From assembly GCA_017475725.1 (NCBI GenBank), contig JAFVFA010000052.1, positions 1 through 37,094 of the forward strand: a DNA stretch of 37,094 nucleotides, read 5' to 3'. Shown here piece after piece: positions 5,601 through 19,562 of this stretch. This DNA is from Spirochaetales bacterium. Its GTDB lineage: Bacteria > Spirochaetota > Spirochaetia > Sphaerochaetales > Sphaerochaetaceae. The notes under the pieces were generated by a model. It made no database searches and had not been told where the DNA came from. It was given only the letters and a program-made list of their open reading frames with translations. A program made the translations under genes and the position numbers. Every line of letters starts with the position of its first letter. The first letter of the stretch is position 1.

Positions 5601-8600
5601 GCATCTCTCACGAGAATTGGAGATCAGGCATTCCGAGGATGCACATCTCTGAAATCAATTGTTATTCCAGATGGAATTGAAAAGATTGAATACTCAACAT
5701 TCTATAATTGCGAATCACTAGTTTCCGTGACTCTTCCAGATTCTGTGACTTATCTTGATCGGGAGTGCTTTGTCGGATGTGGATTTGACAGATTCCAGAT
5801 TCCGGAGACTGTTGACACATTAAGCTGTTATGTTTTCATGAACTGCAAAAACCTCAAGGAGATTCTCATTCCCAAGAGTGTGAAGTATGTTGATGACAGA
5901 CCGTTCTGGGATTGTACCTCCTTGCAGAAAATCTATGTTCAGTCACAGACCCAGCCAAGTGGATGGATAACATCCTGGCATGATTGTTGTGATGCTCAGA
6001 TAGTTTGGGGCTACACAGGAGAACTGCATTATACCCATACTGAATCAACGGAATGGAAGACAAGCTCCACATATCACTGGCATGAGTGTACGGAATGCGG
6101 AGAGGTCATGAGCATGGCCAAGCACACCTACCAAAGCGAGGTCACTGCTCAGCCAACCTGTACTGAAGCAGGAACAATGACCTATACATGTTCCGAATGC
6201 GGATGGAGCTACACCGAAACCATTCCAGCCCTTGGACATGACTATCATTCGGAGATAACAAAGCAGGCGACATGTACGGAAAAGGGAGAACTCAAGTATT
6301 CCTGCAGCCGTTGTGACAGCACATACACTGAGGAGATCGTCTCGCACCACGAATATGAGGAAGTGGTAACCACTGCTGCCACCTGTACCACGGATGGTCT
6401 GAAGACTCTGACATGCTCAATCTGCAGTGACAGCAAGACCGAAGTGATTCCTGCAACAGGACACTCCTACAAGGAAACCGTTGTTCCTGCAACCTGTACA
6501 GATGACGGAACAAAGATCTACAAATGCGAGCACTGTGAGGACGCCTATGAGGAAGTGATCCCTGCAATTGGTCATAACTATGTAGCATCCATCACCAAGC
6601 AGGCAACCTGTGAAGAGGATGGAATCAAGACATTCACATGCTCAAGATGCAGTGATTCCTACACAGAGACAATCAATGCCTATGGTCACTATTTCACAAC
6701 TTCTACAATAGTTCAGGCAGCAACATGCCATGAGGCAGGAATCAAGTCCTCCAAGTGCTTCAGATGTGGCAAGACCGTTACAGAGGAGATCCCAAAGCTC
6801 GAGCACAATCCAGTCTTTGCAGCCGATGAGTCAAACCACTGGACGCAGTGCAGTCTCTGTGGAGAAATCCTTGTTTCCAAGGCGGCCCACAACTATATCG
6901 AGACTGAAGGTGACTTCGTCTGTGCAGACTGCGGTTATTCTGAATCATCTCTCTACTACCAGGTGGATGACAACGGAATTCTGACTCCAAAGGACAAATC
7001 GGTTCTTCCATCAGTGGTTAGAATCCCATCTAACATCAATGGAAAAGCTGTAACGGCCATAGGTGATGATGCTTTCAGGGATTGCACCAACATAACAACG
7101 CTTTATATCTCGGAAGGCATCAAGAAGGTTGGTGCAAATGCATTCTGGTACTGCACAAACATAACATCGATCTCTCTACCAAGCACATTAAGTGAAATTG
7201 GGGATAGTTCGTTCAGGGGCTTGGAGAAACTTAAGGATCTGGTTGTTCCGGGAAGCCTCCGGTATCTCCCCTCACAATCATTTAGTCTGTGCCATGATCT
7301 TCAGTCAATTATCATCGAAGATGGTGTTGAGCGAATCGGTCCGTATGCATTGGAAGAGGTTTTCAACAACAAACTTGATTATGTCGAGATTCCTAGAAGT
7401 GTAACCACTATTGAAGGCTATGCATTCCGGCAGTGTTACATTGACGAGATTAACTATGCGGGAACAATTGCTGATTGGAACAACATTACGATTGATCAGC
7501 GCTGGATGCATCTAAGCACAATTGAACGAATAGTCTGTGCTGATGGAATTATAGTAATTGGCGATTATGATGTAACTGCTGATGGAGAATTCTATGTTAT
7601 AAAAAAAGATATGATCCCTTCACATTTTGAAATTCCTTCTGTAATTAATGGTATAAAAGTAACAAAACTGGCCGACAGTGCTTTTGATGATTGCCAAACC
7701 ATTGAGTCCGTTGTTATTCCCGAAGGAGTTGTTTCAATAGAAGCATGGGGATTTTATAATTGTCAGAATCTAAAGGAGATATCATTTCCTTCAACTATGA
7801 AAAACATCGGCCATTATGCGCTTATGGGTACTCAGATTGAGACATTGTACCTGCCTAATGGGAATCTTGGAAATGCTATTGCCTGTTGCAATTCTGTCAA
7901 ATCCATAACAATCTCCAACGAATCATCTTCTGCGCCTATTGTAGGAAGTTGCAGAAATCTTGAGGAATTGGTTTTTCTTGGAACTATGAGTGAATGGAAC
8001 CGACTTCCAAAAGAAGGAGGCTGGTGTGAAAAGACATTACTGAAGAAAGTTTCATGTCTTGATGGTGATGTCGAAATACCAAACATTTACATTAACAATA
8101 GCACCCTGTTCTGTAATAATACTTCAGCATTATTATCCGAAGTAGAAATACCTGCTTCATTTGATGGAAGCGCTGTGAAAAAAATATCCGATAACATGTT
8201 CCGTGGTGACACTCACATTGTTTCAGTCGTTATTCCTGAAGGAGTAAAGGAAATCGGAGCCTCGTGTTTTAGGGAGTGTTCAAATCTTGTATCTGTTTCA
8301 CTACCATCAACAATAACAACAATCGGTTCCGAGGCTTTTCAATATTGTGAAAAGCTCGAATCGGTAAAGATTCCTTCTGGGGTAACCAAGATTGAACCGG
8401 ATACATTCTCGCGATGTTACTCGTTATCAGAAGTTGTAATACCAAACACCGTTACGACTATTGGGTATGGCGCTTTTCATAGTTGTCCCATGAAGTCCAT
8501 TGAGATTCCTGATTCGGTAACTTCTATTGGATGGGTTGCTTTTTACGATTCAAAGCTAACTTCATTGGTTATTCCAGACAGCGTCAGATACATTGATAGC

Positions 8601-8816
8601 GAAGCTTTTGCCAATTCAAGTCTGCTGGAATCAGCTGTTATATCAGGTAATCTCTCATCAATCCCCAATAAGCTGTTTGAGAACTGCACGAATCTGAGCT
8701 TAATCATGTTCAACGGGACCGTTGCCAAATGGAATTCTCTTAACAAGGGAAGCGGATGGAATGAAGGTGTTCCAGCAACAAAGGTTGTCTGTCTTGATGG
8801 TGAAGTGAATCTGTAA
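2688..8816 (+). CDS. Giant modular surface lipoprotein (2042 aa): CarboxypepD_reg-like beta-sandwich repeats + Cys-rich repeats + BspA-type leucine-rich repeats
   Basis: One uninterrupted 6.1 kb ORF. The signal peptide carries a lipobox (LLLICIFAFVSC). The repeat modules are described in the sub-features below. Confidence 0.9.
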   Translation: MKKALRLSALLLICIFAFVSCTQDPVSVTITPTIRGKVSIPSGANVKGSDFYIRIMEGENAVYTGKVKEDGSFAVEGLDESKTYSILLSTEELGEVNTSARDVSRAASTSGYGGWLKNVTASVNEQAGVGSIKVKPLGTIKGVVKRSGEEEHSDIMVYIPGTSYMAVTDSNGNYSIFNVPQSSSTYNLRCISVTGDWLPEVITGVLLYSDSDTENPVKTVQEKSIVKNAGNLLGTITKTAATDNSNITVLIQNDEFSETGTTAADGSLKITGILPGTYKVTISSTGFVTQTIDDVVIRAAKDTSIGEKVLIANGGDIIGTVSINDGSSSIGSLITVTSQDKKYSYTTQASADGSFVIPNAYGAIYDITISKTGYAEVIQHNILVSAGQVTALGLIELSSSYGTVSGRVTDTKGNPLENAIVKIGNLSVFTGVDGMFTKTGVPVGNCDVSVSMEGYSTQNLAQMITVESSRTTGIGTVRLASVYGSVTGTVTVNDGKSVENISVSATSADGASIQVKTIGDGSYHIQGLVPGSYTVSANADGYTGSSRTVAVSADNNVEIDVLSLYSKYGKLSGRVVDSNGNPLSGVSIMIGDLEAVVTKADGTFIKDLLPVGLYSISITKESFVDELLENIEVQSFIETHLTDDVVMTPKMGTIAGRVRIDGESDFSGIKVTVSSSGEGKDYSAFTEADGSFSISALPGNYNLIEFSHPCCNVQYYLDNVALFANGRVEVKPQGLNSTEYQIALSHNYGILYNESKSSSCTEQGYNKLRCWDCGKEITEYLDILEHEFSLVDHLDPTCTEEGWRKYECSSCGQEFTEIDQALGHDWNKPVIIEAATCHSTGLQQVTCKTCGETENQTIAMLPHSWVDNGYHDGKIEYVCSVCDEVEYADDSTAILNISDWGSVSLKPSVDPSSVKTLIIPSEINGMTVTSVFEHTFQDCVNITKIVLPETLTSIESWAFAGCIGITEIDLPASLTRIGDQAFRGCTSLKSIVIPDGIEKIEYSTFYNCESLVSVTLPDSVTYLDRECFVGCGFDRFQIPETVDTLSCYVFMNCKNLKEILIPKSVKYVDDRPFWDCTSLQKIYVQSQTQPSGWITSWHDCCDAQIVWGYTGELHYTHTESTEWKTSSTYHWHECTECGEVMSMAKHTYQSEVTAQPTCTEAGTMTYTCSECGWSYTETIPALGHDYHSEITKQATCTEKGELKYSCSRCDSTYTEEIVSHHEYEEVVTTAATCTTDGLKTLTCSICSDSKTEVIPATGHSYKETVVPATCTDDGTKIYKCEHCEDAYEEVIPAIGHNYVASITKQATCEEDGIKTFTCSRCSDSYTETINAYGHYFTTSTIVQAATCHEAGIKSSKCFRCGKTVTEEIPKLEHNPVFAADESNHWTQCSLCGEILVSKAAHNYIETEGDFVCADCGYSESSLYYQVDDNGILTPKDKSVLPSVVRIPSNINGKAVTAIGDDAFRDCTNITTLYISEGIKKVGANAFWYCTNITSISLPSTLSEIGDSSFRGLEKLKDLVVPGSLRYLPSQSFSLCHDLQSIIIEDGVERIGPYALEEVFNNKLDYVEIPRSVTTIEGYAFRQCYIDEINYAGTIADWNNITIDQRWMHLSTIERIVCADGIIVIGDYDVTADGEFYVIKKDMIPSHFEIPSVINGIKVTKLADSAFDDCQTIESVVIPEGVVSIEAWGFYNCQNLKEISFPSTMKNIGHYALMGTQIETLYLPNGNLGNAIACCNSVKSITISNESSSAPIVGSCRNLEELVFLGTMSEWNRLPKEGGWCEKTLLKKVSCLDGDVEIPNIYINNSTLFCNNTSALLSEVEIPASFDGSAVKKISDNMFRGDTHIVSVVIPEGVKEIGASCFRECSNLVSVSLPSTITTIGSEAFQYCEKLESVKIPSGVTKIEPDTFSRCYSLSEVVIPNTVTTIGYGAFHSCPMKSIEIPDSVTSIGWVAFYDSKLTSLVIPDSVRYIDSEAFANSSLLESAVISGNLSSIPNKLFENCTNLSLIMFNGTVAKWNSLNKGSGWNEGVPATKVVCLDGEVNL
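2781..4920 (+). repeat. Array of about ten CarboxypepD_reg/PEGA-like beta-sandwich repeats (protein level) in lipoprotein 1
   Basis: A module of 80-100 aa recurs in the form G(T/S)(V/I)xGxVxxxxGxPLxxxxVxI...TxxDGxFxxxxLxPGxYxLxxSxxGY. One example is YGTVSGRVTDTKGNPLENAIVKIGNLSVFTGVDGMFTKTGVPVGNCDVSVSMEGYS. Confidence 0.7.
4964..5350 (+). repeat. Cys-rich repeat block 1 (3 full copies plus a partial) of a roughly 32-37 aa C-x9-C-x2-C-x12-H module
   Basis: Copies are SCTEQGYNKLRCWDCGKEITEYLDILEHEF, PTCTEEGWRKYECSSCGQEFTEIDQALGHDW and ATCHSTGLQQVTCKTCGETENQTIAMLPHSW, followed by the partial YVCSVCDEVEY. Confidence 0.75.
5427..5945 (+). repeat. BspA-type leucine-rich repeat (LRR_5-like) block A
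   Basis: Units of 23-25 aa recur, e.g. IPSEINGMTVTSVFEHTFQDCVNITKIVLPETLTSIESWAFAGCIGITEIDLPASLTRIGDQAFRGCTSLKSIVIPDGIEKIEYSTFYNCESL. They follow the pattern (I/L)Pxx(V/L)xxIGxxAFxxCxxL. Confidence 0.8.
6025..6940 (+). repeat. Cys-rich repeat block 2 (6 full plus about 3 partial copies) of the C-x9-C-x2-C-x12-H module
   Basis: Full copies are PTCTEAGTMTYTCSECGWSYTETIPALGHDY, ATCTEKGELKYSCSRCDSTYTEEIVSHHEY, ATCTTDGLKTLTCSICSDSKTEVIPATGHSY, ATCTDDGTKIYKCEHCEDAYEEVIPAIGHNY, ATCEEDGIKTFTCSRCSDSYTETINAYGHYF and ATCHEAGIKSSKCFRCGKTVTEEIPKLEHNP. Half-modules flank them (HWHECTECGEVMSMAKHTY, HWTQCSLCGEILVSKAAHNY, FVCADCGY). Confidence 0.8.
7014..8745 (+). repeat. BspA-type LRR blocks B, C and D (about 7014-7490, 7623-8005, 8140-8745), each ending in a '...GT(I/M/V)xxWNxL/I' cap
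   Basis: Three further runs of the (I/L)PxxVxxIGxxAFxxCxxLxx(V/I) unit. Each run is introduced by '(V/F)xIPSxINGxxVTxI' and terminated by a similar cap (YAGTIADWNNI, FLGTMSEWNRL, FNGTVAKWNSL). Confidence 0.8.
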
Positions 8817-8827
8817 GGTCGTAGGAT

Positions 8828-11800
8828 ATGAGAAAACTAGTCTTGTTTGTTTTGTTGATTTCTTTGTTCGCCATGGTCTCCTGCAACGAGGAGCCTGCTA
8901 CTGTGGTCCAGCAGACCCCCACAATCAGGGGTTCCGTCTCAATCCCCGCAGGTGCAGGGGTCACCGGAAGTGACTTTTACGTCCGCATCATGGAGGGTGA
9001 GAGGGCTGTCTACACCGACAAGGTGAACAGTGACGGTTCATTCTCGGTGTCCGGACTCAGTGAGGAGAGGACATACAGCATACTTCTCACAACTGAGGAG
9101 CCGGGAAACATCAACGACAGCTCAAGGGATGTCCCAAGGGCAGCCACCAGCGGCTACGGCGGATGGCTGAGCAATGTGACGGCATCGGTCAACGAGCAGG
9201 CAGGGGTTGGTTCAATCAAGGTGAAGCCACTTGGAACAATCAGGGGCGTTGTGAAGAAGGACGGCGCCGAGGACAACTACGACACAACCGTATACATCCC
9301 TGGAACCTCATATCTTGCCATGACGGATGGAGAGGGGAACTTCAGCATCTTCAATGTTCCACAAGCCACATATACCCTCAGATTCATCTCCAGCGGCTAC
9401 ATGGCAAGGATGGTTGATAATGTGGTGTTGCATTCAGACAGTGACACAGAGAATCCGGTCACCACTGTGCAGGCACAGACACTGATAAAGAACGCTGGAA
9501 ATCTCATTGGAACGATCTCGAAGACAGGCTCAACAGATCACAGCAATGTTACAGTCATGCTCAGTGATGGAAAGAACACCTTCACAGGAAGCACGTCTTC
9601 AGACGGAAGTCTGCTAATCTCCAGCATAATCCCTGGAACATATACTGCCACAATCAGTGCAAGCGGGTTCCTGACACAGACAATCGAAGGCCTCACAATA
9701 GAGGCTGCGAAGAACACGGCACTCAATCCTATAAGCCTCATAGCAAATGGTGGAAGCATAGCTGGAACGGTTGAGATGAACGATGGAGGCGAGAAGGCAG
9801 GTGTACTGATAACCGCGAAGAGCACCGATGACAAGTACTCCTACACCACAAGTACGGATGCCGAGGGCAAATACGTGATCAACAACACCTATCCCGGAGT
9901 ATACATCCTAACCGCCTCAAAAGCTGGTTATCCCTCTGTGACTACAGGAGAAGCAGCCTCAATTGCAGGACAGACAACAACTATTGGAGTCATTTCCCTC
10001 TCATCCAAGTATGGCAGTGTCTCAGGCAGGGTGGCACTTTCAGAGAGTGTGGACAACAGTGGAGTTACAGTTTCCCTTACATGCGGTGCAGGTCCGTCAA
10101 TCGCCTACACGGCTGTGTCAGGAGCAGATGGAACATACACAATCAGTAGCCTTACAACAGCTGGGCAATACACCATCACATTCAGCAAGGACGGCTATGT
10201 GTCTAATACTGGAACCGTGGTGAATGTTGTGCTCGGGCAGAATCAGGTGATAGAGGACGTCACACTGAAGAGCCTTGCCTCCAAGGTGTTCGGAAATGTC
10301 ACCCTTGAAGAGACGGGGGACTACACTGGAATCTCCGTCCAACTGAAGGCAGTGGATGGCTCAGTTCAATACGATGCAACAACGGACCAGCAGGGAAACT
10401 ATGTCATGGCAAGAGTTAACCCCGGCGAATACTCACTGACTGCATCAAAGGCTGGATATGTGTCCAAGACTGTTGAATCGATAATTATTGAGTCGTCAAC
10501 TGAGAAGGAGCTTGATTTAGTGATCCTTAATATAGGAACACGATCTGTTTTCGGAACAGTCAGTCTTGAACTGGGAAACAGTCATGAAGGAACTCTAGTA
10601 ACTGCAACAAATACCCAAGACACTACGAAAATATACTCTGCTATTACTAATACTGCAGGTGAATTCACCCTTGCGGGTATGGTTCCGGGCAGGTATAACG
10701 TTGCATTGTCTCACAGCAACTATGTGACATCCACTGTATCTATCGATGTTATTGACGGTACTCTTGCAACAAACGATAATGTGAAACTTGCAATTGCAAG
10801 AGGTGCAATTCAAGGTTATGCCAAGCTTGAGGGCTACACAGATTACAGCGGAACATCTGTCGTTCTTGTCGGAACGGACTATTCTACCGTCACTGATAAT
10901 GAAGGATTCTATTCACTCAATGTGCCTACGGGAAACTATTCCGGTGGAATCCTGTTCGAACATGAGGATTTCGAGAGTCATATGCATGTCTCTACTGTCA
11001 CTGTGCAGATGAGCGGAGCATATGGAATCCCGACTGTGACATTGGATGCAAAGAATGTCAGAGTGGTTAAAGGTGTATTCACCTTGAAGGACAGATCCGA
11101 CAGTTCAGGCATCTCTGTCTATTTTGAGGATCTTCCACATTATTCTGCAGAGACGGATACAGAGGGAAACTGGGTAATTGAACATGTGCCGCTCGGTCAG
11201 CACAATCTTGTCACATACAGGGAAAACGTCAAGTCGTTCAGTATGACTGTAGAACTTGAACCTGCACCAGCGTATGACAATGGCACATTGGTTCTTATTC
11301 CTGAATCTGCAACAATTCAGGGTTTTGCAAGGTTATCCGGAATGACTTCATATGCAGGCATCGAAGTGACAGCAACACCTGAAGGAGTTGGAGATGTAAT
11401 CACCACAACCACAAAGGCAGATGGGTCATATTATATGTCGAATTTGCTTTCCACATCGGACTACACAATCTCGTTCTTCAAGGAAGGTTGGAAAATGGAA
11501 AGCATCAAGCAGAGGAATTTCACAGAACTTGAAGTCCGGACTCTTGATGATATCGCTATGGTTGATAATACGGCTCCTGTCATTTCCGATGTGGTCATCA
11601 ACAACGGCGGGGCTACGACTTCCGACAGGGAAATAAGAATTTATCTTTCATCCAATGACCTCGGAAGCGGATGCAAAAGAGTCCAGATCAACACAGAAAA
11701 CAGGTTTGATGAAACTGTGATATATAGGGACTATTATGATGAGCAGGATTTCACACTTCCTGAGGGAAACGGTGAAAAGACCATATACATCAAGGTGTAT

Positions 11801-14023
11801 GACCTTGCTGGAAACGGCTCTGAGGTGTTCCGGAAAACAATAACGTTGACCGAACAGAAGACCAAGGTGGGTGGCGTTCTTGTAGGTGCGACTGATATTG
11901 TATGGACCAAAGAAAAGAGTCCGTACTACGTGGAAAGCAGTATTCTGGTCGAGTCTGGTCGTACCTTGACCATAGAGCATGGTGTAGTTGTTGAATTTGC
12001 TGGACCTTACTATATCGATGTCGAGGGAACCATGTATGTTAATGGTACGGAAGACGACATGGTATGTATGTATGGTGTGGGTGAAGGCGAGAATACGTGG
12101 AAGGGTGTAAACTTCCTCAGTAAAAATCTTGTTTATACAGGAACGGAGTATGAACCGGTCTATGTAAGCGGAAACAGGATGTCCTATGTGAACATTCAGA
12201 ATAATGCAGAAGGGATAACGGGAACAGCGTGGATTGAAAAATGTACTATTACGACAAGTTCCAATATAAATGAAAAGGCATCATGGCAATGGCGAGGTCT
12301 TGCATTTGGAAATGCTGGTTTTGGAGAAGGCCCTCAAAGCAATGGAACTCAGATGCAGTCAATTTTCTATGTTTCAGGGGTATTTAAGGATAATACTATC
12401 ATTGGTGATTTCTCCTGCTATGGCTTGGCCCCATTTATTTTTGCAAATAACCAAGTGGAAGGAAATGTGTTTATCCAGAATACAAATAATGATGCTCGCA
12501 ATATGGAGTACCACTTCTACAATAATCGCTTTGTTGGGATAGGCTGCAAGTTTGGAATAGATACTTATTACAAGAATGATTACTTCTTTGCAAATAATGC
12601 TTTTAATGGCTTTGAAAGCCTTTCTGTGTTTTCTAGTTGGAGCACGGAGAGAGTAGATTGGGGCGATTCTCGTTTTTCTTATGATAACTGCTCTTTTGAG
12701 GCCATTAATCAAATTAGCATTGATGTTAGGGGCTCTGGATGTGCAGGACGAATAAAAGGGGTGTTTTGTGGGTGCTTGTTTGATAGCATTGAGACAATTG
12801 AAATCGGTTTTTCTGTTGATGTGAATTATTCTAATATTATTGACGTTTCGAAGATTTCTGTCACATCTCAGAGACAATATCTTGGATCAAACTCATTCTC
12901 CAACAATTACTGGGGGCCTGATAAGGTTTTTTCAATGAATAATAATGGAGATGATTTCAATTATGCCTTCTTCTCTGATTTCTATGACGATATTGTTGTG
13001 TCCAAGCTTGATTATTCGGGATGGGTTCAGAATCCATTTGAAACAGCAGGGTACCGAGGAGAAGACTACTGCTCTTATGAGTTGGTTCCAGAAAAACCTA
13101 TTGAAGCTACTATTAATGTCGATTCAGATTACGTGATGACGAATGTGGGTGTAAATCGCATCTTCGTTTTACCTGTCTACGGATCAGATGCTATAAGGTA
13201 TAGAGCTTTTCAGAACCTTGATGAGTTGTTGGTACTCGCCTCAGATGAAGGATGGACAGAGACTGTCGATCACAAGATTAGTATTTATCCAGATAATCTG
13301 AAAGATTGGTTTATTCAGATAGAAGATGGTAATGGCAGGAAATCACGTGTTTATAGGATAGCACCAATATTTTTGGTCGGAGGTCCTGCGGGAGGATTTG
13401 TATTTTATGACTGCGATGCTGACAACAATTCTGGTGATTCTGATGGTTTAAGGTCTTCTGAGATTGGTTGGAGATATCTTGAGGCTGCTCCAGCAGATCT
13501 TAAGGTTGTCAATGGTGTCCCGACAGTCGACTCTTCTGTCAACGGATATTCAAGTGCTTCCAGCGAATATGAATTCGGTTATTACAGGACAGCCGACAGC
13601 GGAGATAACTTGTATGTAAATGGAACACCCACTTACAGAGGATCCAACTGCACAGGAACTGCCATAGGAACAGGAGAGTCCAATACACAGCTTCTCGCCG
13701 AAGCAATGGGAGATGAGACTTATTCCTCAGAATCTGGCTCAAATAAGACTTCAAACTATGCCGCAAGGTTGTGTGACATAGTTGAATACACTGTGGATGG
13801 AGTGACTTATGACGACTGGTTCCTGCCAAGCAAGGACGAGCTGAACGTGATGTACACCAATCTGCACATGGCTGGTCTAGGCGATTTTGCCAACTACGGC
13901 TACTGGTCATCCAGTGAGGACAGCGATTTCACATACAATGCGTGGTTAGAGAATTTCTATGGAAGCCTGTACTGCAACAGCCGCCAACTCAGATACAAAG
14001 TACGTCCTATACGAACTTTCTAA
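8828..14023 (+). CDS. Giant modular surface lipoprotein 2 (1731 aa): paralogous N-terminal stalk, CarboxypepD_reg-like repeats, Ig-like domain, beta-helix-like region, C-terminal DUF1566 (Lcl C-terminal / C-type-lectin-like) domain
   Basis: An uninterrupted 5.2 kb ORF starting 11 nt after lipoprotein 1. It has a lipobox (LLISLFAMVSC). The first ~380 aa align colinearly with lipoprotein 1, at roughly 60% identity by eye. Confidence 0.9.
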   Translation: MRKLVLFVLLISLFAMVSCNEEPATVVQQTPTIRGSVSIPAGAGVTGSDFYVRIMEGERAVYTDKVNSDGSFSVSGLSEERTYSILLTTEEPGNINDSSRDVPRAATSGYGGWLSNVTASVNEQAGVGSIKVKPLGTIRGVVKKDGAEDNYDTTVYIPGTSYLAMTDGEGNFSIFNVPQATYTLRFISSGYMARMVDNVVLHSDSDTENPVTTVQAQTLIKNAGNLIGTISKTGSTDHSNVTVMLSDGKNTFTGSTSSDGSLLISSIIPGTYTATISASGFLTQTIEGLTIEAAKNTALNPISLIANGGSIAGTVEMNDGGEKAGVLITAKSTDDKYSYTTSTDAEGKYVINNTYPGVYILTASKAGYPSVTTGEAASIAGQTTTIGVISLSSKYGSVSGRVALSESVDNSGVTVSLTCGAGPSIAYTAVSGADGTYTISSLTTAGQYTITFSKDGYVSNTGTVVNVVLGQNQVIEDVTLKSLASKVFGNVTLEETGDYTGISVQLKAVDGSVQYDATTDQQGNYVMARVNPGEYSLTASKAGYVSKTVESIIIESSTEKELDLVILNIGTRSVFGTVSLELGNSHEGTLVTATNTQDTTKIYSAITNTAGEFTLAGMVPGRYNVALSHSNYVTSTVSIDVIDGTLATNDNVKLAIARGAIQGYAKLEGYTDYSGTSVVLVGTDYSTVTDNEGFYSLNVPTGNYSGGILFEHEDFESHMHVSTVTVQMSGAYGIPTVTLDAKNVRVVKGVFTLKDRSDSSGISVYFEDLPHYSAETDTEGNWVIEHVPLGQHNLVTYRENVKSFSMTVELEPAPAYDNGTLVLIPESATIQGFARLSGMTSYAGIEVTATPEGVGDVITTTTKADGSYYMSNLLSTSDYTISFFKEGWKMESIKQRNFTELEVRTLDDIAMVDNTAPVISDVVINNGGATTSDREIRIYLSSNDLGSGCKRVQINTENRFDETVIYRDYYDEQDFTLPEGNGEKTIYIKVYDLAGNGSEVFRKTITLTEQKTKVGGVLVGATDIVWTKEKSPYYVESSILVESGRTLTIEHGVVVEFAGPYYIDVEGTMYVNGTEDDMVCMYGVGEGENTWKGVNFLSKNLVYTGTEYEPVYVSGNRMSYVNIQNNAEGITGTAWIEKCTITTSSNINEKASWQWRGLAFGNAGFGEGPQSNGTQMQSIFYVSGVFKDNTIIGDFSCYGLAPFIFANNQVEGNVFIQNTNNDARNMEYHFYNNRFVGIGCKFGIDTYYKNDYFFANNAFNGFESLSVFSSWSTERVDWGDSRFSYDNCSFEAINQISIDVRGSGCAGRIKGVFCGCLFDSIETIEIGFSVDVNYSNIIDVSKISVTSQRQYLGSNSFSNNYWGPDKVFSMNNNGDDFNYAFFSDFYDDIVVSKLDYSGWVQNPFETAGYRGEDYCSYELVPEKPIEATINVDSDYVMTNVGVNRIFVLPVYGSDAIRYRAFQNLDELLVLASDEGWTETVDHKISIYPDNLKDWFIQIEDGNGRKSRVYRIAPIFLVGGPAGGFVFYDCDADNNSGDSDGLRSSEIGWRYLEAAPADLKVVNGVPTVDSSVNGYSSASSEYEFGYYRTADSGDNLYVNGTPTYRGSNCTGTAIGTGESNTQLLAEAMGDETYSSESGSNKTSNYAARLCDIVEYTVDGVTYDDWFLPSKDELNVMYTNLHMAGLGDFANYGYWSSSEDSDFTYNAWLENFYGSLYCNSRQLRYKVRPIRTF
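8915..11565 (+). repeat. CarboxypepD_reg/PEGA-like beta-sandwich repeat array in lipoprotein 2
   Basis: Modules recur such as YGSVSGRVALSESVDNSGVTVSL...GADGTYTISSLTTAGQYTITFSKDGY, VFGNVTLEETGDYTGISVQLKAVDGS...TDQQGNYVMARVNPGEYSLTASKAGY and IQGYAKLEGYTDYSGTSVVLVGTDYSTVTDNEGFYSLNVPTGNY. Confidence 0.7.
11860..13000 (+). other. Right-handed beta-helix-like region (protein domain) of lipoprotein 2
   Basis: It opens with WTKEKSPYYVESSILVESGRTLTIEHGVVVEFAGPYYIDVEGTMYVNGTEDDMV, the common 'SPY.V...i.V..G.TLTIEPGV.V.F' beta-helix entry motif. N/G/F-rich pseudo-repeats follow. The preceding NTAPVISDVVINNGGATTSDREIRIYLSS...YIKVYDLAGNGS segment looks Ig-like. Boundaries are approximate. Confidence 0.5.
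13375..14020 (+). other. DUF1566 / Lcl C-terminal-like domain of lipoprotein 2
   Basis: The entry is GGPAGGFVFYDCD...GWRYLEAAPADL. The terminal DDWFLPSKDELNVMYTNL...YGYWSSSEDSDFTYNAWLENFYGSLYCNSRQLRYKVRPIRTF matches the DUF1566 pattern W(R/F)LP(T/S)xxEL...YWSS(T/S)E...AW...F..G......VR.(V/I)R.F. Confidence 0.75.
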
Positions 14024-14036
14024 CCAATTTGATTGC

Positions 14037-15137
14037 ATGACAAAAGGAGACCTGTTGAGCGTGTTACATGAATTCAAAGAGTGGCTCGAAATAACAGAAG
14101 ATTCCAAGAATTCCTATAGCTCATATGTTAGTTCTTTGTTTGTTCGTGTCCTTGAGCCTAGGATGGCCGATATAAAGGAAATCTTTAGTGACAATCAAGT
14201 TGAGCCAGATACTCCTCTTTTAGCATGGATTGTTGATTCTGCTCGAAGCGAGGAAGAACTATCTTCGTTTTCTTGTTTGGTAGAGAATATTATTTCAACA
14301 GAGATTGCAAACACCAGAAGTGGTACTAGTTCTTTATCCATACCGGCTAAGACATTATCCAATTACAGAAGTGGCTTTAGAAGATTCATTAATTATCTTG
14401 GAGTAGAGAATAGCGTAGTAAAGAAATGTGAGGATATTGGTTTTCCCAAATCGGAAAAGAAGATTGAGATTCCATTCAATTCTGATCAGTTTTTCAGCCA
14501 CAGACAGATGTTCAACACTTTCAAAAGCAGGCTGAAGACCCAGGATCGTTTTTACTCACACATTATTTTCCCCGTGAGGCTCCTAAGTAAGTTGTTCAAT
14601 GGAAAGGGAAAAAAGGAAGAGTACAACTTGGTACTGAAAAATACCATTGATTCAACAAAGATCCTCATATGTGGAGAAGAAAAGGATGTTTGCTTCAGTT
14701 CTGTTTCATCACTTAACATCAATATAGGAAAAGAAAACTCATGCCAAGTCAATGTTGTAGACAAAGGATGGAAGACTGTATGTACAGAATGTTATGAGAA
14801 TGGTGGCGGACCCAAAATCCGTTTGCTACAACCGTTATCCTTCATGGACTTGTCATTAGATCATGATACAGCAATGCATAACCTTTTGGAGGAGCATTGT
14901 CTGGATTATCCTGCACTTAAAAGGCTCTCTGATCGCATTGCCAATCACTTCAATATATCTGGGGATTACAATCAGCTAAGAGGTTACAGAGATAGGATTT
15001 GTTCAGAATTCTATGAAAGTGTGGGTTTCTCTGAAAACGAGATTGACAATCTTTACAAAGAGTTCGTTGAGCTCAGCGAAAAAATAAGTTTAACAATCAT
15101 GGAGCGTTCTGAGAACTCGAGAAAGAATGCTTCATAA
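14037..15137 (+). CDS. Hypothetical cytoplasmic protein (366 aa), AT-rich orphan inside the surface-protein operon
   Basis: The ORF is open from 13959, but that start overlaps the stop of the upstream gene. The first non-overlapping ATG is 14037 (MTKGDLLSVLHEFKEWLEI...). It has no signal peptide or TM segment, and I recognise no family. Confidence 0.6.
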   Translation: MTKGDLLSVLHEFKEWLEITEDSKNSYSSYVSSLFVRVLEPRMADIKEIFSDNQVEPDTPLLAWIVDSARSEEELSSFSCLVENIISTEIANTRSGTSSLSIPAKTLSNYRSGFRRFINYLGVENSVVKKCEDIGFPKSEKKIEIPFNSDQFFSHRQMFNTFKSRLKTQDRFYSHIIFPVRLLSKLFNGKGKKEEYNLVLKNTIDSTKILICGEEKDVCFSSVSSLNINIGKENSCQVNVVDKGWKTVCTECYENGGGPKIRLLQPLSFMDLSLDHDTAMHNLLEEHCLDYPALKRLSDRIANHFNISGDYNQLRGYRDRICSEFYESVGFSENEIDNLYKEFVELSEKISLTIMERSENSRKNAS

Positions 15138-15167: not shown

Positions 15168-15755
15168 ATGAAAAAAATCGCAATCCTTTTGCTGTGCATC
15201 ATCGCACTGGGACTGATCGTATCATGCCAGGCCACCAACCATGGTGTGGCATTGTCGCAGAACAAGGGAGTGGTCGGGAAGAACGGCATCCCCAGACCGG
15301 ATTGGGTCATCTATGACCAGTCAACCAAGAAGATGCACTTCGCCTCAGGCTTCGGCACAAGCAAGACATTCGAGGTCGCCAAGCAGAAGGCCGTGCTGAA
15401 CGCCGATGCAGAGCTTGCACTGTGGATTGCAAACTCCGTTACCGCCGTCAGGGACAGGTACATAGAGGAGGCCATAGTCAACGAGAGCGAGACATACATC
15501 GACAAGTTCGTCTCCACTGCAACAGAGATGGGCAACGCCGTCATGTCCGGAGTCACAGAGATCGACTACTGGGAGGACGGGGACGGTGGTGTCTGGGTTC
15601 TCCGCGCCATTGAGGTCGCAAACGTCAAGGCACAGATTGCCGCTGCCATAAGCGCAACATGTGCAGAGCCGACCCTGTTCAGCGGCACCACTGATGTCGC
15701 TGATGTCATGGCCAAGCTCAACAAGGCCCTTGACGAGTACTTCCCGGCAGAATGA
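15168..15755 (+). CDS. LPP20/FlgP-like lipoprotein
   Basis: The ATG at 15168 follows AAAAGGAG. A lipobox is present (IIALGLIVSCQ). The core IPRPDWVIY...HFASGFGTSKTFEVAKQKAVLNADAELALWIANSV fits the LPP20 pattern (P.W....y.vG.G......A...A...A..ELa..i). Confidence 0.7.
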   Translation: MKKIAILLLCIIALGLIVSCQATNHGVALSQNKGVVGKNGIPRPDWVIYDQSTKKMHFASGFGTSKTFEVAKQKAVLNADAELALWIANSVTAVRDRYIEEAIVNESETYIDKFVSTATEMGNAVMSGVTEIDYWEDGDGGVWVLRAIEVANVKAQIAAAISATCAEPTLFSGTTDVADVMAKLNKALDEYFPAE

Positions 15756-16762
15756 TGAGAAGGAACCTTTGCATCTTTGCTGCGGTCCTGCTTCTTGCAG
15801 GACTGCTGGTGTCCTGTGCATCGTCAAAGTGGGTGTCGGATCCCTATGCCTCCTATCCGCAGGCTGACTATGTCTGCGCAGTGGGGAAGGGCAGCACTCA
15901 AGATGAAGCCGACCTTGCGGCCAGGCGTGAACTTGCAGCCCTTTTCGGCATGAGTGTGCAGTCCACAATCTCCAGGACCCTTGTCGAGACATCTGTCGAG
16001 AGGGATGGCCGGAGCTCGGAGAGCTTCAGCGAGTTCTTCACAAGCAATGCTACCACAACGGTGAATGTGGACAACCTCTACGGGGTGGAGATCGCCAAAC
16101 GGACGACAGAGAAGGACGGCAGGTCCGTCTCTCTTGCCGTGATGGAGAAGAAGGCCACCGCTGACTACTATCTTGCCAGATTGAAGTCTGACAAAGAGGA
16201 GATCGATGGCCTGAAAGCATCAATTGCACCGAATTTCGGCAAGTTGAAAGCCATTTCGGACTCTGTATCCATCATCCGGAAGGTTAATGACTACAACACC
16301 AGCGTGGTCATGTGCAACTACCTGACCGGTGGGGAGATCCCTTTCATGAGCCTGGCGGAGTTCAGTGAGCTCTACAGACAGGCAATGGATGCCGTTGTGG
16401 TCGATGTTGTTGTGGAAGGCGATCCCTCAGGTGCCGTCAAGAGCGCTGTGGACAAGATCGTCACGGGTTGCGGCCTTTCAGTTGCCGCCGGAAACTCGGA
16501 GCCCACTGCCAAGGTCGCAGTCACAGTGGTTTGGCGTGAGAGTGCAGGTACAGGCGTAGCAAGCTCATTCCTGTTCGCGGACTACAACGCCGACATCTCG
16601 CTGGTGGATCTTGCAGATGGGGAGAGTATCTTCGTCAGATCCTACAAGGGTAAGGAAGGTCATCAGACTTTCGAGAGCGCCAAGGCCAGGGCTATCACAG
16701 ATCTGGTTGGCCAGATCGAGGATGAGTTCGGACCCGCGATGAGGGAAGTCTTCACATACTAG
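15752..16762 (+). CDS. LPP20-domain lipoprotein with C-terminal extension
   Basis: Its start overlaps the upstream stop (ATGA), implying translational coupling. A lipobox is present (LLLAGLLVSCASS). ADYVCAVGKGSTQDEADLAARRELAALFGMSVQSTI is a second LPP20-like core. About 200 further residues are of unknown fold. Confidence 0.65.
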   Translation: MMRRNLCIFAAVLLLAGLLVSCASSKWVSDPYASYPQADYVCAVGKGSTQDEADLAARRELAALFGMSVQSTISRTLVETSVERDGRSSESFSEFFTSNATTTVNVDNLYGVEIAKRTTEKDGRSVSLAVMEKKATADYYLARLKSDKEEIDGLKASIAPNFGKLKAISDSVSIIRKVNDYNTSVVMCNYLTGGEIPFMSLAEFSELYRQAMDAVVVDVVVEGDPSGAVKSAVDKIVTGCGLSVAAGNSEPTAKVAVTVVWRESAGTGVASSFLFADYNADISLVDLADGESIFVRSYKGKEGHQTFESAKARAITDLVGQIEDEFGPAMREVFTY

Positions 16763-16770
16763 GAGAGTTT

Positions 16771-17892
16771 ATGAAAAGCATGAAGAGAACAGTCCTTGCT
16801 CTTGTTGTTCTGTTTGCACTGTGCCTTCCCGTCTTCGCGGCGACCAATGAATATGAGGCTGCTGTGGCGGAGATTGTGGAGACCTTCGCCAATGTTCTGG
16901 GCAAGGGCACCACAGTTGCGTTCGTTTCCATGGAAAGCGATTCGGAGGCTTTCTCCTCCAGATTCATGTCGGATGTGGAAAGGGGGCTTGTGAACCGCGA
17001 TGCCATTGTCCTTGACAGAAGCAACATCGATGCCATTGTGGCGGAGCTGGAGTTCCAGACAAGCGGCCTGGTCGATGATGACCAGGCGGTCTCCATCGGT
17101 CACATGCTCGGGGCGCAGATGATAATATCGGCAAAGGCATCAAACCAGGTCTCCGCCTATCATGTCGACATCCAGCTGATAGACATAGAGACCACTCTGG
17201 TCAGAAGGCATCTTGTCTACGACCTGAAGCAGGACCAGAACCTGAGGAACATCATCAGCGGAAGCTCATCGAATGTCGGAAGCCAGAAGATCGGCATCGG
17301 ACTGCGTGGCGGCATGAACTTCGGGTTCAACAAGGCCCATGAGGATATGGTCGGAACCGGGACAAGACCCGCTGAGGAGTCCCCGAAGACGTTCACTCCG
17401 ACTTTAAGCGCCTTCTACAGGGTCATGGACACCCTGAAGGTGCAGCTCGAGCTCTCCTACTTGGAGAACGGCATTGATGTCTACGGCTTCTACGATGACT
17501 ACAGCGGCTACACGCTTGACATTGATGTCCGGTACAAGACGCTGGACATTCCGCTTCTTCTGGCATGGAACTTCATCCAGAAGCCTGTGAGCGTGGATGT
17601 CTTTGCCGGGGCCTATGCCTCCATCCCCGTCAGCACAGCCAACATCTCGTATGACATCGAAGGCCACGGCAACCTCAAGGGTTCGGTCGATGTCACCGGT
17701 GTTGTGTTCGGCGTTGTCGGAGGATTCGATGCCGGCTTCAGAGTCGGTCCCGGCAATGTTGTGGTGGATGCAAGGTTCTTCTATGACCTGACACCCGCAA
17801 TGGCCCAGGGTGAGCTTCTGGGCGAAGGTTCGCAGGGTCTTATGTACCGCAGAGGCGTGATCGTGTCTGCCGGTTACATGTTCGAGATCTGA
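16771..17892 (+). CDS. Outer-membrane protein: N-terminal CsgG/LpoB/FlgO-type periplasmic domain fused to a C-terminal OMP beta-barrel
   Basis: An SPase-I signal is present (LCLPVFA-AT). The N-domain TTVAFVSMESDSEAFSSRFMSDVERGLVNRDAIVLDRSNIDAIVAELEFQTSGLVDDDQAVSIGHMLGAQMIISAKAS...YHVDIQLIDIETTLV matches the CsgG/LpoB/TolB-N-like pattern. The C-terminal half shows alternating-hydrophobic strands rich in G/Y/F and ends ...VSAGYMFEI, an aromatic-x-hydrophobic OMP terminus. Confidence 0.7.
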   Translation: MKSMKRTVLALVVLFALCLPVFAATNEYEAAVAEIVETFANVLGKGTTVAFVSMESDSEAFSSRFMSDVERGLVNRDAIVLDRSNIDAIVAELEFQTSGLVDDDQAVSIGHMLGAQMIISAKASNQVSAYHVDIQLIDIETTLVRRHLVYDLKQDQNLRNIISGSSSNVGSQKIGIGLRGGMNFGFNKAHEDMVGTGTRPAEESPKTFTPTLSAFYRVMDTLKVQLELSYLENGIDVYGFYDDYSGYTLDIDVRYKTLDIPLLLAWNFIQKPVSVDVFAGAYASIPVSTANISYDIEGHGNLKGSVDVTGVVFGVVGGFDAGFRVGPGNVVVDARFFYDLTPAMAQGELLGEGSQGLMYRRGVIVSAGYMFEI

Positions 17893-17898
17893 TTAGAT

Positions 17899-17945
17899 CC
17901 CATCCCATTGCCGGTGCGGGGTGGCTCGGAATGGGATGGGTTTTT
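17899..17945 (+). terminator. Rho-independent terminator closing the 2688-17892 operon
   Basis: A perfect 11-bp stem, CCCATCCCATT (17899-17909) with AATGGGATGGG (17930-17940), encloses a 20-nt GC-rich loop. TTTTT follows at 17941-17945. The element starts 7 nt after the stop codon. Confidence 0.85.
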
Positions 17946-17996
17946 CCTCTTTCCGTAAAGTGTGGACCCCCTGAAATTTCCTCTTTCCGTAAAGTG
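17943..17996. repeat. Perfect 20-bp direct repeat TTTCCTCTTTCCGTAAAGTG x2 (period 34)
   Basis: Copies lie at 17943-17962 and 17977-17996, immediately after the terminator. Confidence 0.9.
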
Positions 17997-18001
17997 AAAA
18001 G

Positions 18002-18125
18002 TAGTTAGCGCCAGAAACTATAGATGATTTTGGCGCTAAGTCAAATAAAAATATAGTTAGCGCCGAAAACTATAGTTGAATTCGGCGCTATTGTGGTTAA
18101 TAATATGGTTAGCGCCAAAATGGTA
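18002..18125. repeat. Two tandem hairpin elements sharing TAGTTAGCGCC(A/G)AAAACTATAG, plus a third half-copy, upstream of ATPase gene 1
   Basis: Hairpin 1 pairs TTAGCGCCA (18005-18013) with TGGCGCTAA (18031-18039), 9 bp. Hairpin 2 pairs TAGCGCCGAA (18058-18067) with TTCGGCGCTA (18081-18090), 10 bp. A third GGTTAGCGCCAAAA at 18107-18120 has no partner arm and lies about 25 nt before the ATG at 18144. Confidence 0.85.
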
Positions 18126-18143
18126 CACTCGGAGGGACAAATT

Positions 18144-19562
18144 ATGCTGATTGGTCGAGATCAAGAACAAAGGAAGCTGAGGGAAGCATATCAGGCTGAA
18201 GAATCCCAGTTCATTGCCGTGTATGGAAGACGCAGAGTAGGCAAGACCTACCTTATCCGTGAAAGCTTCGGATCAGGCTTCACCTTTCAGCATACCGGCT
18301 ACTATGGTGGAAAGCTTTCCGATGAATTGTTTGAATTCTGTGCATCTCTACGAGAGTATGGGCTGACAGATTTTGAAAGGCCCAGGAACTGGCTTGAGGC
18401 ATTTGAGCTCCTTAAAGACTTGATCAGAGGCTCAAAAGGGGAAAAGAAGGTGATATTCCTTGATGAACTGTCATGGATGGATACTCGTGGCAGTGATTTC
18501 ATCATGGCTTTGGAAGGGTTCTGGAACAGTTGGGCTTCTGCTAGGAAGGATATTCTTCTTATTGTCTGTGGTTCTGTGACATCTTGGATGCTGAGTAAAA
18601 TAATCCACAACAAGGGAGGTCTATATAATCGTTTGTCCTGCAGAATCCACCTCCAGCCTTTTACCCTCAAAGAGTGTGAGGAATATATTAAATCTAAAAA
18701 AATAGTTATGAACCGTCATCAGATTCTCGAGAGCTATATGATAATGGGTGGTATTCCGTATTATTGGAGTTTCCTTGAAAAAGGATTGAGTCTAGCACAG
18801 AACATTGACCGCTTGTTTTTTTCCAATGATGCTCCTTTGAAGCAGGAATTCGACTATTTGTACTCTGCACTGTTCAAGAGACCCGAGCCATATCTGGAAA
18901 TCGTTTCTGCCTTGGGAAAGAAAAAGACCGGTATGACAAGAGAAGAACTACTTAAGGTTACACATTCGACAGATTCTGGAAATTTTTCCACTCGATTGGA
19001 GGAGTTGGAAAGTTGCGGTTTCATTCGGAAGTATCGCCGGTATGGAATGAAGGAGCGTAATTCAAACTATCAATTGATTGATAATTATACACTCTTCTAC
19101 TTCAAGTTTTTGGATGACAGGCCCACAGATGAGCATTATTGGAGTAATCAGATCAACACGCCAAAGGTCAATGCTTGGTGCGGATTGGCCTTTGAAATGG
19201 TTTGCCTTGAGCATGTCCCTCAGATTAAGAATGCGCTTGGAATCTCCGGGGTTTTGACTGAGGCATACTCATGGATTTGCAAAGAGGATTCAGAGAAGGG
19301 CATACATGGATCTCAGATAGATTTGGTCATTGCCAGAAAGGATCAGGTGATCGACTTATGTGAAATGAAGTTTTCAGTGAAGATGTTTTCTATAACGGAG
19401 AAGATTGATGAGTCCATCAGACGGAAGGCTTCAGATTTTCTTCTGTCCACAGGCGCAAAGTATGCGATTCATACGATACTGGTGACTCCTTATGGAGTTG
19501 CAGATCGCTCCTACGTAGGGAGTATACAGAAAGTCATTACAACAGAGGACCTGTTTTCTTGA
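18144..19562 (+). CDS. Orphan ATP-binding protein, archaeal-type ATPase (Arch_ATPase) + DUF234-like C-terminal PD-(D/E)xK-like domain
   Basis: I prefer the ATG at 18144 because GGAGGG lies 7 nt upstream; the ORF is open from 18093. MLIGRDQEQRKLREAY....FIAVYGRRRVGKTYLIRE is the family N-terminus with Walker A, and VIFLDELSWM is Walker B. The C-terminal GSQIDLVIARKDQVIDLCEMKFS resembles a D...(D/E)xK nuclease-fold core. Confidence 0.8.
   Translation: MLIGRDQEQRKLREAYQAEESQFIAVYGRRRVGKTYLIRESFGSGFTFQHTGYYGGKLSDELFEFCASLREYGLTDFERPRNWLEAFELLKDLIRGSKGEKKVIFLDELSWMDTRGSDFIMALEGFWNSWASARKDILLIVCGSVTSWMLSKIIHNKGGLYNRLSCRIHLQPFTLKECEEYIKSKKIVMNRHQILESYMIMGGIPYYWSFLEKGLSLAQNIDRLFFSNDAPLKQEFDYLYSALFKRPEPYLEIVSALGKKKTGMTREELLKVTHSTDSGNFSTRLEELESCGFIRKYRRYGMKERNSNYQLIDNYTLFYFKFLDDRPTDEHYWSNQINTPKVNAWCGLAFEMVCLEHVPQIKNALGISGVLTEAYSWICKEDSEKGIHGSQIDLVIARKDQVIDLCEMKFSVKMFSITEKIDESIRRKASDFLLSTGAKYAIHTILVTPYGVADRSYVGSIQKVITTEDLFS

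Follow-up and report, generated by a model that had tools for sequence, protein, structure and literature searches.

Two LPP20-type lipoproteins and an LpoB-domain/barrel fusion protein encoded beside giant lipoprotein genes in spirochaetes

We analysed a stretch of 37,094 nucleotides (nt) from a gut spirochaete, a Spirochaetales bacterium of the family Sphaerochaetaceae (GenBank assembly GCA_017475725.1, contig JAFVFA010000052.1, positions 1 to 37,094), hereafter the window, and focused on three adjoining genes of its forward strand, here called A, B and C. Gene A (15168-15755) encodes a lipoprotein of 195 amino acids (aa) in which an LPP20 domain (aa 44-145) is followed by a C-terminal helix. 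Gene B (15752-16762) encodes a 336-aa lipoprotein composed of an LPP20 domain, a helical hairpin and an alpha/beta domain resembling those of LptE, PelC, CsgG and GNA1162. Gene C (16771-17892) encodes a predicted outer-membrane protein of 373 aa that joins an LpoB-fold periplasmic domain to a barrel of about ten strands. As described below, this trio has the parts list of a lipoprotein operon of Helicobacter pylori and is kept next to genes for very large lipoproteins in nearly every related locus.

The three genes are tightly packed. The stop codon of A overlaps the start codon of B (gaATGAtg, with the ATGA at 15752-15755), and the stop codon of B (TAG, 16760-16762) is followed by an 8-nt gap (gagagttt) and the ATG of C at 16771, with an AGGAG spanning the B stop codon ahead of this start. 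Directly 3' of C, on the same strand, lies a predicted intrinsic terminator (17895-17945) made of a hairpin and a U-run; the hairpin has a free energy (dG) of -28.5 kcal/mol and a z-score of -3.35, and none of the shuffled sequences was equally stable. A consensus scan for promoters and terminators was uninformative and passed over this terminator because the hairpin loop is long. Transcription of A-B-C evidently stops here. Overlap, short gap and terminator thus define a compact unit ending after C, and its genes look translationally coupled and co-transcribed; an earlier reading of this DNA from its letters alone (the sequence-only reading) had described the same two junctions. The G+C content of the trio is 0.52-0.55, against 0.38-0.42 in the flanking low-GC open reading frames (ORFs). 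Each gene has between 56 and 114 homologue clusters and the order A-B-C is found in nine of nine full-length genome loci, so the three are evidently real genes and not chance ORFs. Rfam and tRNA scans of the window detected no RNA genes.

Protein A carries the lipobox LIVSC, with Ser19 and the lipidated Cys20 invariant among 38 A-family sequences. The Pfam LPP20 model matches A with 20.9 bits (E 4.8e-4), below its cut-off of 25.9 bits, and matches 26 of the 38 family members, with a best E of 7.8e-7. Protein B lies above the same cut-off (PF02169, 27.4 bits), as part of a family in which LPP20 is matched by 40 of 42 members, and A is homologous to the N-terminal part of B, its LPP20 domain, according to hhalign (probability 97%, E 2.7e-11). 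At the level of family profiles, the LPP20 assignment of both proteins is secure, A taken alone being the one below the cut-off; two LPP20-like lipoproteins do precede the third gene, as the sequence-only reading had it. The linker that follows the lipid Cys of A (aa 21-47, nt 15228-15308) contains the stretch NHxVALSQNKGVVGKNGIxRPDWV (aa 24-47, about nt 15237-15308), invariant in all 38 sequences, which outside it share 49-82% identity with A of the window. Lipoprotein tethers are seldom so conserved, and this suggests a binding peptide. The 24-residue stretch that follows the lipid Cys in A is absent from B.

Protein B has the lipobox LLVSC, and its Ser21 and Cys22 are at least 90% conserved in the B family. 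Its AlphaFold2 model (predicted local distance difference test score, pLDDT, 83.5) contains an LPP20-type domain (aa 40-132 in the model, assigned to aa 27-132 overall), a long helical hairpin (aa 133-192) and an alpha/beta domain (aa 202-334). Within the first of these, 46 residues (aa 66-111) form a low-confidence segment with short strands (pLDDT 32-43). This segment is at most a candidate counterpart of the ring-building hairpin of FlgP, and as the Pfam LPP20 model already spans it, it need not be an insert relative to the family. When the model was compared with the PDB using Foldseek, the top match was HP1454 of H. pylori (4kzs; E 2.8e-8, 309 aligned columns), and the C-terminal domain of B matched LptE, PelC, CsgG, GNA1162 and HpaA. 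FlgT ranked 4 and a chain of the Vibrio LPHT-ring ranked 38, and FlgP itself was not among the top 50 structural matches. The overall modelled architecture of B is that of HP1454.

Protein C begins with a signal peptide that has no conserved Cys and no lipobox, and cleavage by signal peptidase I is predicted at VFA/A. Pfam assigns aa 64-144 to LpoB (PF13036; 30.9 bits, cut-off 22.3), and gives weak matches to CsgG (aa 80-121; 13.3 bits, cut-off 20.8, E 0.05) and to OMP_b-brl (E 0.16). No NCBIfam model matched C at its cut-off: the LpoB equivalog TIGR02722 scored 20.1 bits for a cut-off of 110.55, and the TDE1717 subfamily scored 22 bits for a cut-off of 135, so that C is not a member of it. 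The AlphaFold2 model (pLDDT 82) consists of an alpha/beta N-terminal domain (aa 28-153, nt 16852-17229), a linker of about 20 residues and a barrel (aa 174-372, nt 17290-17886). Foldseek matched the N-terminal domain to the C-terminal domain of LpoB (4q6l, 4q6z; template modelling score, TM, 0.68 on the target), to TolB-N and to GNA1162, and the barrel, of about ten strands, to OmpA, OmpW and OprG (E 2e-7 to 1e-6) as well as to Ail and Pla. With its ten strands the modelled barrel is of the closed antiparallel type, of 8-10 strands and with periplasmic termini, that characterises small outer-membrane beta-barrels, and the position of these termini puts the N-terminal domain in the periplasm. 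PF13568 (OMP_b-brl_2) is recorded for many C homologues. The best-conserved motif of C, ELEFQTSGLVDDxxAVSIGHMLGA, belongs to the periplasmic domain; also well conserved is the loop behind the first barrel strand, FNKAHEDMVGTGxxPxE (aa 186-205). The sequence-only reading had proposed a CsgG/LpoB/FlgO-type domain fused to a porin-like barrel ending in GYMFEI; for C, a CsgG/LpoB-superfamily domain fused to a small barrel with this C-terminus is borne out, and the structural comparison of B pointed to HP1454 and not to the FlgP that had been suggested. Sequence searches of the PDB with A and B and with the family profiles of A, B and C yielded nothing significant; among these, the A and B family profiles reached Lpp20 (5ok8) weakly, at E 0.33, and did not list HP1454. 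For relatives in the PDB, fold comparison alone is informative.

The architecture of C is by no means rare. At 90% identity its homologues form 114 clusters, nearly all of 350-380 aa and with both domains, and where they bear names these are hypothetical, 'TolB-like' or 'CsgG/HfaB family'. An exhaustive profile search returned 362 representatives at E<=1e-30; among the best 142 new representatives, 81 have both domains and 27 have at least two copies of the periplasmic domain. Variants of the family (P0267-P0349) carry 2 to 5 tandem LpoB-like domains in proteins of 470-1198 aa. In the literature we found no description of a fusion between an LpoB domain and a barrel, or of the trio as a module in spirochaetes. 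Judged by these searches, the architecture is widespread but unnamed: the sequence-only reading, which did not recognise it as a described fusion, was right in that no curated family name and no NCBIfam model at its cut-off covers it. Record titles place most carriers in Spirochaetales (Sphaerochaetaceae, Bullifex, Ornithospirochaeta). A few records are labelled Bacteroidaceae, Paludibacter or Peptococcales, and these may be binning errors.

The order A-B-C is also kept in further metagenome loci (loci are given here by our own L numbers). Across loci, identity to the window is highest for A (54-74%), followed by 31-64% for B and 32-74% for C. Two divergent C paralogues, 29-33% identical, were found in L009/L030 (6033-8262), head-to-head with a module of A, B, C and a giant lipoprotein gene; they lack the first-loop motif HEDM(V/I)GTG, which is kept in C proteins adjoining a lipoprotein gene. 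The assembly of L001 holds a second, decayed copy of the module (L047, 10001-13554) in which the first ~75 residues of B are gone, only 78 aa from the N-terminus remain of C, and the giant gene is truncated to 839 aa and has lost its lipoprotein start. Matches in metagenome-assembled genomes of termite-gut Treponema (L010-L023) were set aside: their LpoB-like domain is C-terminal and they have no A or B neighbours. These proteins mostly measure ~250-320 aa (one has 444 aa), and the ~130 residues before the domain show a faint barrel-like similarity.

The strongest functional clue at this locus, which the sequence-only reading missed, is the conserved adjacency to giant lipoprotein genes. Upstream of A the window holds two of them in tandem on the same strand: G1 (2688-8816) encodes a 2042-aa lipoprotein with the lipobox AFVSC followed by TQDP and with a head of BspA-type leucine-rich repeats, and G2 (8828-14023) a 1731-aa lipoprotein in which NEEP comes after the lipobox AMVSC and tandem CarboxypepD_reg domains are combined with an Lcl_C domain at the C-terminus. 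The two are paralogues with a common N-terminal CarboxypepD_reg stalk (44% identity over ~710 aa), and the combination of a common stalk with different heads suggests head swapping. G2, the proposed partner or cargo, is orthologous to the giant gene that directly adjoins the trio elsewhere. At almost all related loci a large lipoprotein gene lies immediately beside the trio or beside a distant C-like gene; its product is usually 1,000-4,000 aa long and made of CarboxypepD_reg repeats. The gene for such a giant immediately follows C in L001, L004-L008, L026/L027, L030, L035, L036, L041 and L043, immediately precedes A in L025 (where it encodes 3824 aa), and flanks the trio on both sides, on the opposite strand, in L003/L037. 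All trio-linked giants have a lipobox, a short acidic or polar tether (C-NEEP, C-TQDP, C-DQNP, C-EQPK, C-KEPEPE) and a first domain that is conserved and starts with TPTI+G.[VI]S[IL]P; their N-terminal ~200 residues are best conserved, and their distal heads differ. Between G2 and A the window has an ORF (13959-15137, probable start 14037; ~370-392 aa) of low GC (0.38) that matches no Pfam family and has no counterpart in the related loci. In other genomes this place is taken up by no more than tens of bases, and the ORF looks like an inserted foreign gene.

The association extends to more distant relatives of C. Genes for C-like proteins with 27-36% identity are followed, at a distance of ~10-260 nt, by unrelated large lipoprotein genes: in L029 one for a 1078-aa fn3/Big_3/Flg_new lipoprotein, behind which come genes for a 172-aa LPP20-like and one further lipoprotein; in L044 one for a 551-aa fn3 lipoprotein; and in L045 one for a 700-aa lipoprotein. 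A fourth such locus is L028. Its A and B are 74% and 62% identical to those of the window, its C only 32%, and the gene downstream encodes a 564-aa lipoprotein of another kind. Here C appears to have been exchanged together with the neighbouring lipoprotein; since A and B are retained and C and its neighbour both differ, C would travel with the cargo.

Two further loci lack the barrel. In L040, a 201-aa lipoprotein matching LpoB (Pfam, E 5.8e-35) and a 445-aa lipoprotein are followed by homologues of A (48%) and B (33%), and in L046 A-like and B-like genes adjoin a lipoprotein that closely resembles the LpoB-type protein of L040. The LpoB-like unit of these loci is predicted to be anchored by a lipid and not by a barrel, and they form a bridge from the trio to the lpp20 operon of H. 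pylori. There, HP1456 is the Lpp20 protein and HP1457 a homologue of LpoB whose orthologue in Campylobacter jejuni, Cj0091, contributes to adherence (PMC11394524); the first domain of HP1454 is Lpp20-like (PMC11756786). In enterohepatic Helicobacter, HP1457 is syntenic with the tetratricopeptide-repeat (TPR) lipoprotein HP0018/Cj0089, whose loss in H. pylori leads to hypervesiculation and a change of shape (PMC11394524). The 445-aa lipoprotein of L040 sits where HP0018 does in enterohepatic Helicobacter.

Taken together, we give about even odds (a probability of roughly 0.5) to the reading that A, B and C form an outer-membrane-attached complex which displays or anchors the neighbouring giant lipoprotein. 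The small barrel of C would sit in the membrane, and the LpoB/CsgG-fold domain of the protein would be suspended right below it. A and B would be lipid-anchored, and their LPP20 domains, together with the LptE/PelC-like domain of B, would probably pack on the periplasmic domain of C by beta-sheet pairing; higher-order arrays or arcs of A-B-C are possible. PelC and CsgG-fold lipoproteins form rings, and LptE docks to a barrel. The trio would thereby be the spirochaete version of the Helicobacter Lpp20-operon module, with a barrel in place of the lipid anchor of the LpoB-like subunit. The giant would consist of a lipid anchor, an acidic or polar tether, a CarboxypepD_reg stalk and a variable adhesin-like head, and the complex may bring its lipidated N-terminus to the outer leaflet, hold it against pulling forces, or both. 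C would be the cargo-proximal subunit, because of the exchange seen in L028 and because C is also paired with a lipoprotein where no A or B is adjacent. The sequence-only reading had pictured a repurposed ring or scaffold beneath the outer membrane; a scaffold attached to that membrane stays the most plausible physical picture, with the Lpp20 operon as its nearest relative.

Several points weigh against this reading. What the analysis establishes is the gene structure, the domain folds, the signals for lipidation and for a barrel, the homology of A with B, the recurrent neighbourhood of large lipoprotein genes and the apparent exchange of C along with the adjoining lipoprotein; that A, B and C bind one another, that the giant is exposed at the surface and that the trio acts on it are inferred. 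As modelled, a ten-strand barrel is too narrow for a folded protein of 1,700 aa, and any export would therefore concern the tether or the lipid, or a lateral release, perhaps in the manner of RcsF-type threading or of LptDE/Slam-type mechanisms. The C proteins of L044 and L045 are 81% identical and their downstream lipoproteins unrelated, so a folded domain would not be what is recognised, if recognition occurs at all. No giant gene lies within 10 kb in L040 or nearby in L046, and from L040 it follows that A and B would have a function independent of such cargo. In the window itself, G2 and A are separated by the 1.1-kb foreign-looking ORF. The related loci are not independent samples, most of them representing orthologous synteny, and the modules sit in variable islands rich in defence genes, in which other causes may bring surface-protein genes together. 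Finally, what links the trio to the H. pylori proteins is structure and composition, with no significant sequence match in the PDB.

A bolder form of the same idea is that C-type proteins and their LPP20 partners constitute a widespread, previously unrecognised spirochaete system for placing and holding specific large lipoproteins at the surface, functionally analogous to Slam or LptDE, in which the first loop of C and the acidic tether of the cargo would be a recognition pair and A and B a load-bearing ring under the membrane; we regard this as tentative and would sooner doubt it than adopt it. A different explanation is that the trio serves general envelope maintenance, stabilising the outer membrane or coupling it to the cell wall, that it has no direct tie, physical or functional, to the giants, and that its adjacency to them reflects co-regulation or a shared island. 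Such a role has been proposed for the clusters of Lpp20, HP0018 and LpoB-like lipoproteins in Campylobacterota, for which the hypervesiculation caused by loss of HP0018 is telling (PMC11394524); it would fit the barrel-less loci L040 and L046 with no giant gene nearby, and C is OmpA-like in its logic. We nevertheless hold it to be unlikely, since the adjacency outlasts rearrangements that put the giant ahead of the trio, behind it, to either side at once or on the opposite strand, since distant C-like genes have lipoproteins of four unrelated types beside them, and since C is exchanged along with its neighbour while A and B stay.

Three functions suggested by individual domains seem far less probable still. 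Of these, a flagellar-type ring, with A and B as FlgP and C as FlgO in a disc round the periplasmic basal body or a relic of one, has the smallest chance in our view. FlgP is a member of the LPP20 family, as are A and B, and B resembles FlgT and the Vibrio LPHT-ring chain at the ranks given above; however, no flagellar gene was found in the 10 scanned neighbouring ORFs of the window or in more than 25 related loci, and the Pfam search, in a set that should include a FlgO model, reported no match of C to a FlgO family at E<=1. Moreover, C is a barrel protein and no lipoprotein. The flagella of spirochaetes stay inside the outer membrane, where a disc in that membrane would have no obvious role. 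What stands of the FlgO/FlgP resemblance drawn in the sequence-only reading is a likeness at the level of fold and superfamily together with its remark that the context is non-flagellar; FlgP is outside the top 50 matches of B. We rejected C as FlgO, for want of a reported FlgO family match and of a conserved Cys in the signal peptide, and the flagellar motor genes with which FlgP is encoded were not seen among the scanned ORFs and related loci. HP1454 and HP1456 have been found to interact with FlgP and FapH in co-immunoprecipitation and two-hybrid assays, a point in favour of the flagellar idea (PMC11756786). We consider it very improbable, too, that the LpoB-like domain of C activates a class A penicillin-binding protein (PBP) with A and B as accessories, as the Pfam match above its cut-off and the fold of the LpoB C-terminal domain might suggest, and as HP1457 has been discussed (PMC11394524). 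C has neither the lipid anchor nor the long disordered linker, its domain being separated from the barrel by ~20 residues, the LpoB equivalog scores far below its cut-off, and the link to giant lipoproteins would be left unexplained. In Escherichia coli, LpoB activates its class A PBP and the disordered linker reaches through the sacculus. There is equally little to be said for secretion of the CsgG/PelC type, in which a periplasmic ring would feed a polymer or an unfolded protein through an outer-membrane pore: the C-terminal domain of B matches PelC, CsgG and LptE and the N-terminal domain of C carries the CsgG/LpoB motif, but the CsgG family falls below its Pfam cut-off, C lacks CsgG-like transmembrane hairpins and has a barrel of the narrow OmpW/OmpA/Ail class, and none of the loci contains genes for polysaccharide or amyloid.

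The surroundings of the trio seem to be those of a variable, defence-gene-rich island. Downstream of C the window has a low-GC orphan ATPase gene (18093-19562; ATPase_2/AAA_14), of which a 43%-identical homologue lies near the module in L009/L030; in L025 an AAA_14+DUF4143 gene follows C, and at other loci the module has GmrSD or HigB genes beside it (the loci noted for ATPase or defence genes being L009/L030, L025, L026/L027, L044 and L047). The region upstream of the ATPase gene (17943-18120) contains an exact 20-nt direct repeat, TTTCCTCTTTCCGTAAAGTG, in two copies 34 nt apart, and three copies, spaced by 52 nt, of a unit with the palindrome TAGTTAGCGCC...GGCGCTAA. These repeats may be operator sites.

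How lipoproteins are delivered to the surface, and how very long adhesins are retained there, is largely open in spirochaetes and other diderms; Slam, LptDE-linked routes and a Borrelia LptD homologue are the only factors known to have been implicated so far. The four-gene module of a giant, a barrel protein and two LPP20 lipoproteins is a testable candidate that recurs with different types of cargo. What is new in it is the barrel fusion and the cargo linkage; what is known is a functionally obscure Lpp20-type module. If the proposed role is true, it would provide the first functional handle on the long-known and unexplained Lpp20, HP1454 and HP1457 of H. pylori. Should the link to giants be incidental, what remains is a well-described outer-membrane architecture, conserved but without a name, together with the lipoproteins that accompany it.

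Among known systems, Slam and LptDE resemble the trio in adjacency logic alone, a barrel protein with a periplasmic domain being encoded beside a lipoprotein, in the case of Slam the one that it handles. LptE-fold lipoproteins work with a barrel. Slam substrates were found through the adjacency of the genes for the outer-membrane factor and the lipoprotein (PMC5449769), and the LptD homologue of Borrelia has been implicated in flipping surface lipoproteins (10.1101/2022.12.21.521298). There is no relation in sequence or fold to the 14-strand barrel or the TPR domain of Slam, and C was rejected as a member of Slam (DUF560), having no such Pfam match and a barrel of ~10 strands. With OmpA, C has in common the combination of a small barrel and a periplasmic domain. 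The likeness to E. coli LpoB lies in the domain fold and in a Pfam match above the cut-off, whereas the lipid anchor and long linker are missing and architecture and gene context differ; the absence of a lipobox, the link of ~20 residues to the barrel and the TIGR02722 score led us to reject C as LpoB proper. C as CsgG/HfaB was rejected likewise, with a Pfam score below the cut-off, no lipidation, a monomeric barrel of its own and no csgE/F or hfa neighbours.

FlgP shares the SHS2/LPP20 fold (PMC12222027), and in Vibrio cholerae the H-ring lipoproteins FlgP and FlgO assemble on the outer membrane into concentric 58-mer rings held by beta-sheet pairing (10.64898/2025.12.02.691832). The binding of C by A and B may be pictured physically on this pattern of an LPP20-type lipoprotein and its partner; unlike these H-ring proteins and the basal-disc protein FlgP of Campylobacter, the trio stands in a non-flagellar context and C is a barrel protein. 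The lpp20 operon of H. pylori differs from the trio in gene order, in an LpoB-like unit that in spirochaetes is fused to a ten-strand barrel and not lipidated, and in that the two reports on it contain no mention of adjoining giant lipoprotein genes (PMC11756786, PMC11394524). Part by part, the correspondence is close: A is comparable to HP1456, a single-domain LPP20 lipoprotein, B to HP1454, with three domains of which the first is LPP20-like, and the N-terminal domain of C to HP1457, of the LpoB family. Because B is HP1454-like, A is LPP20-like and C contains an LpoB domain, the parts list of the trio is that of the H. pylori lpp20 operon, and this operon, not FlgO/FlgP, is its closest known counterpart.

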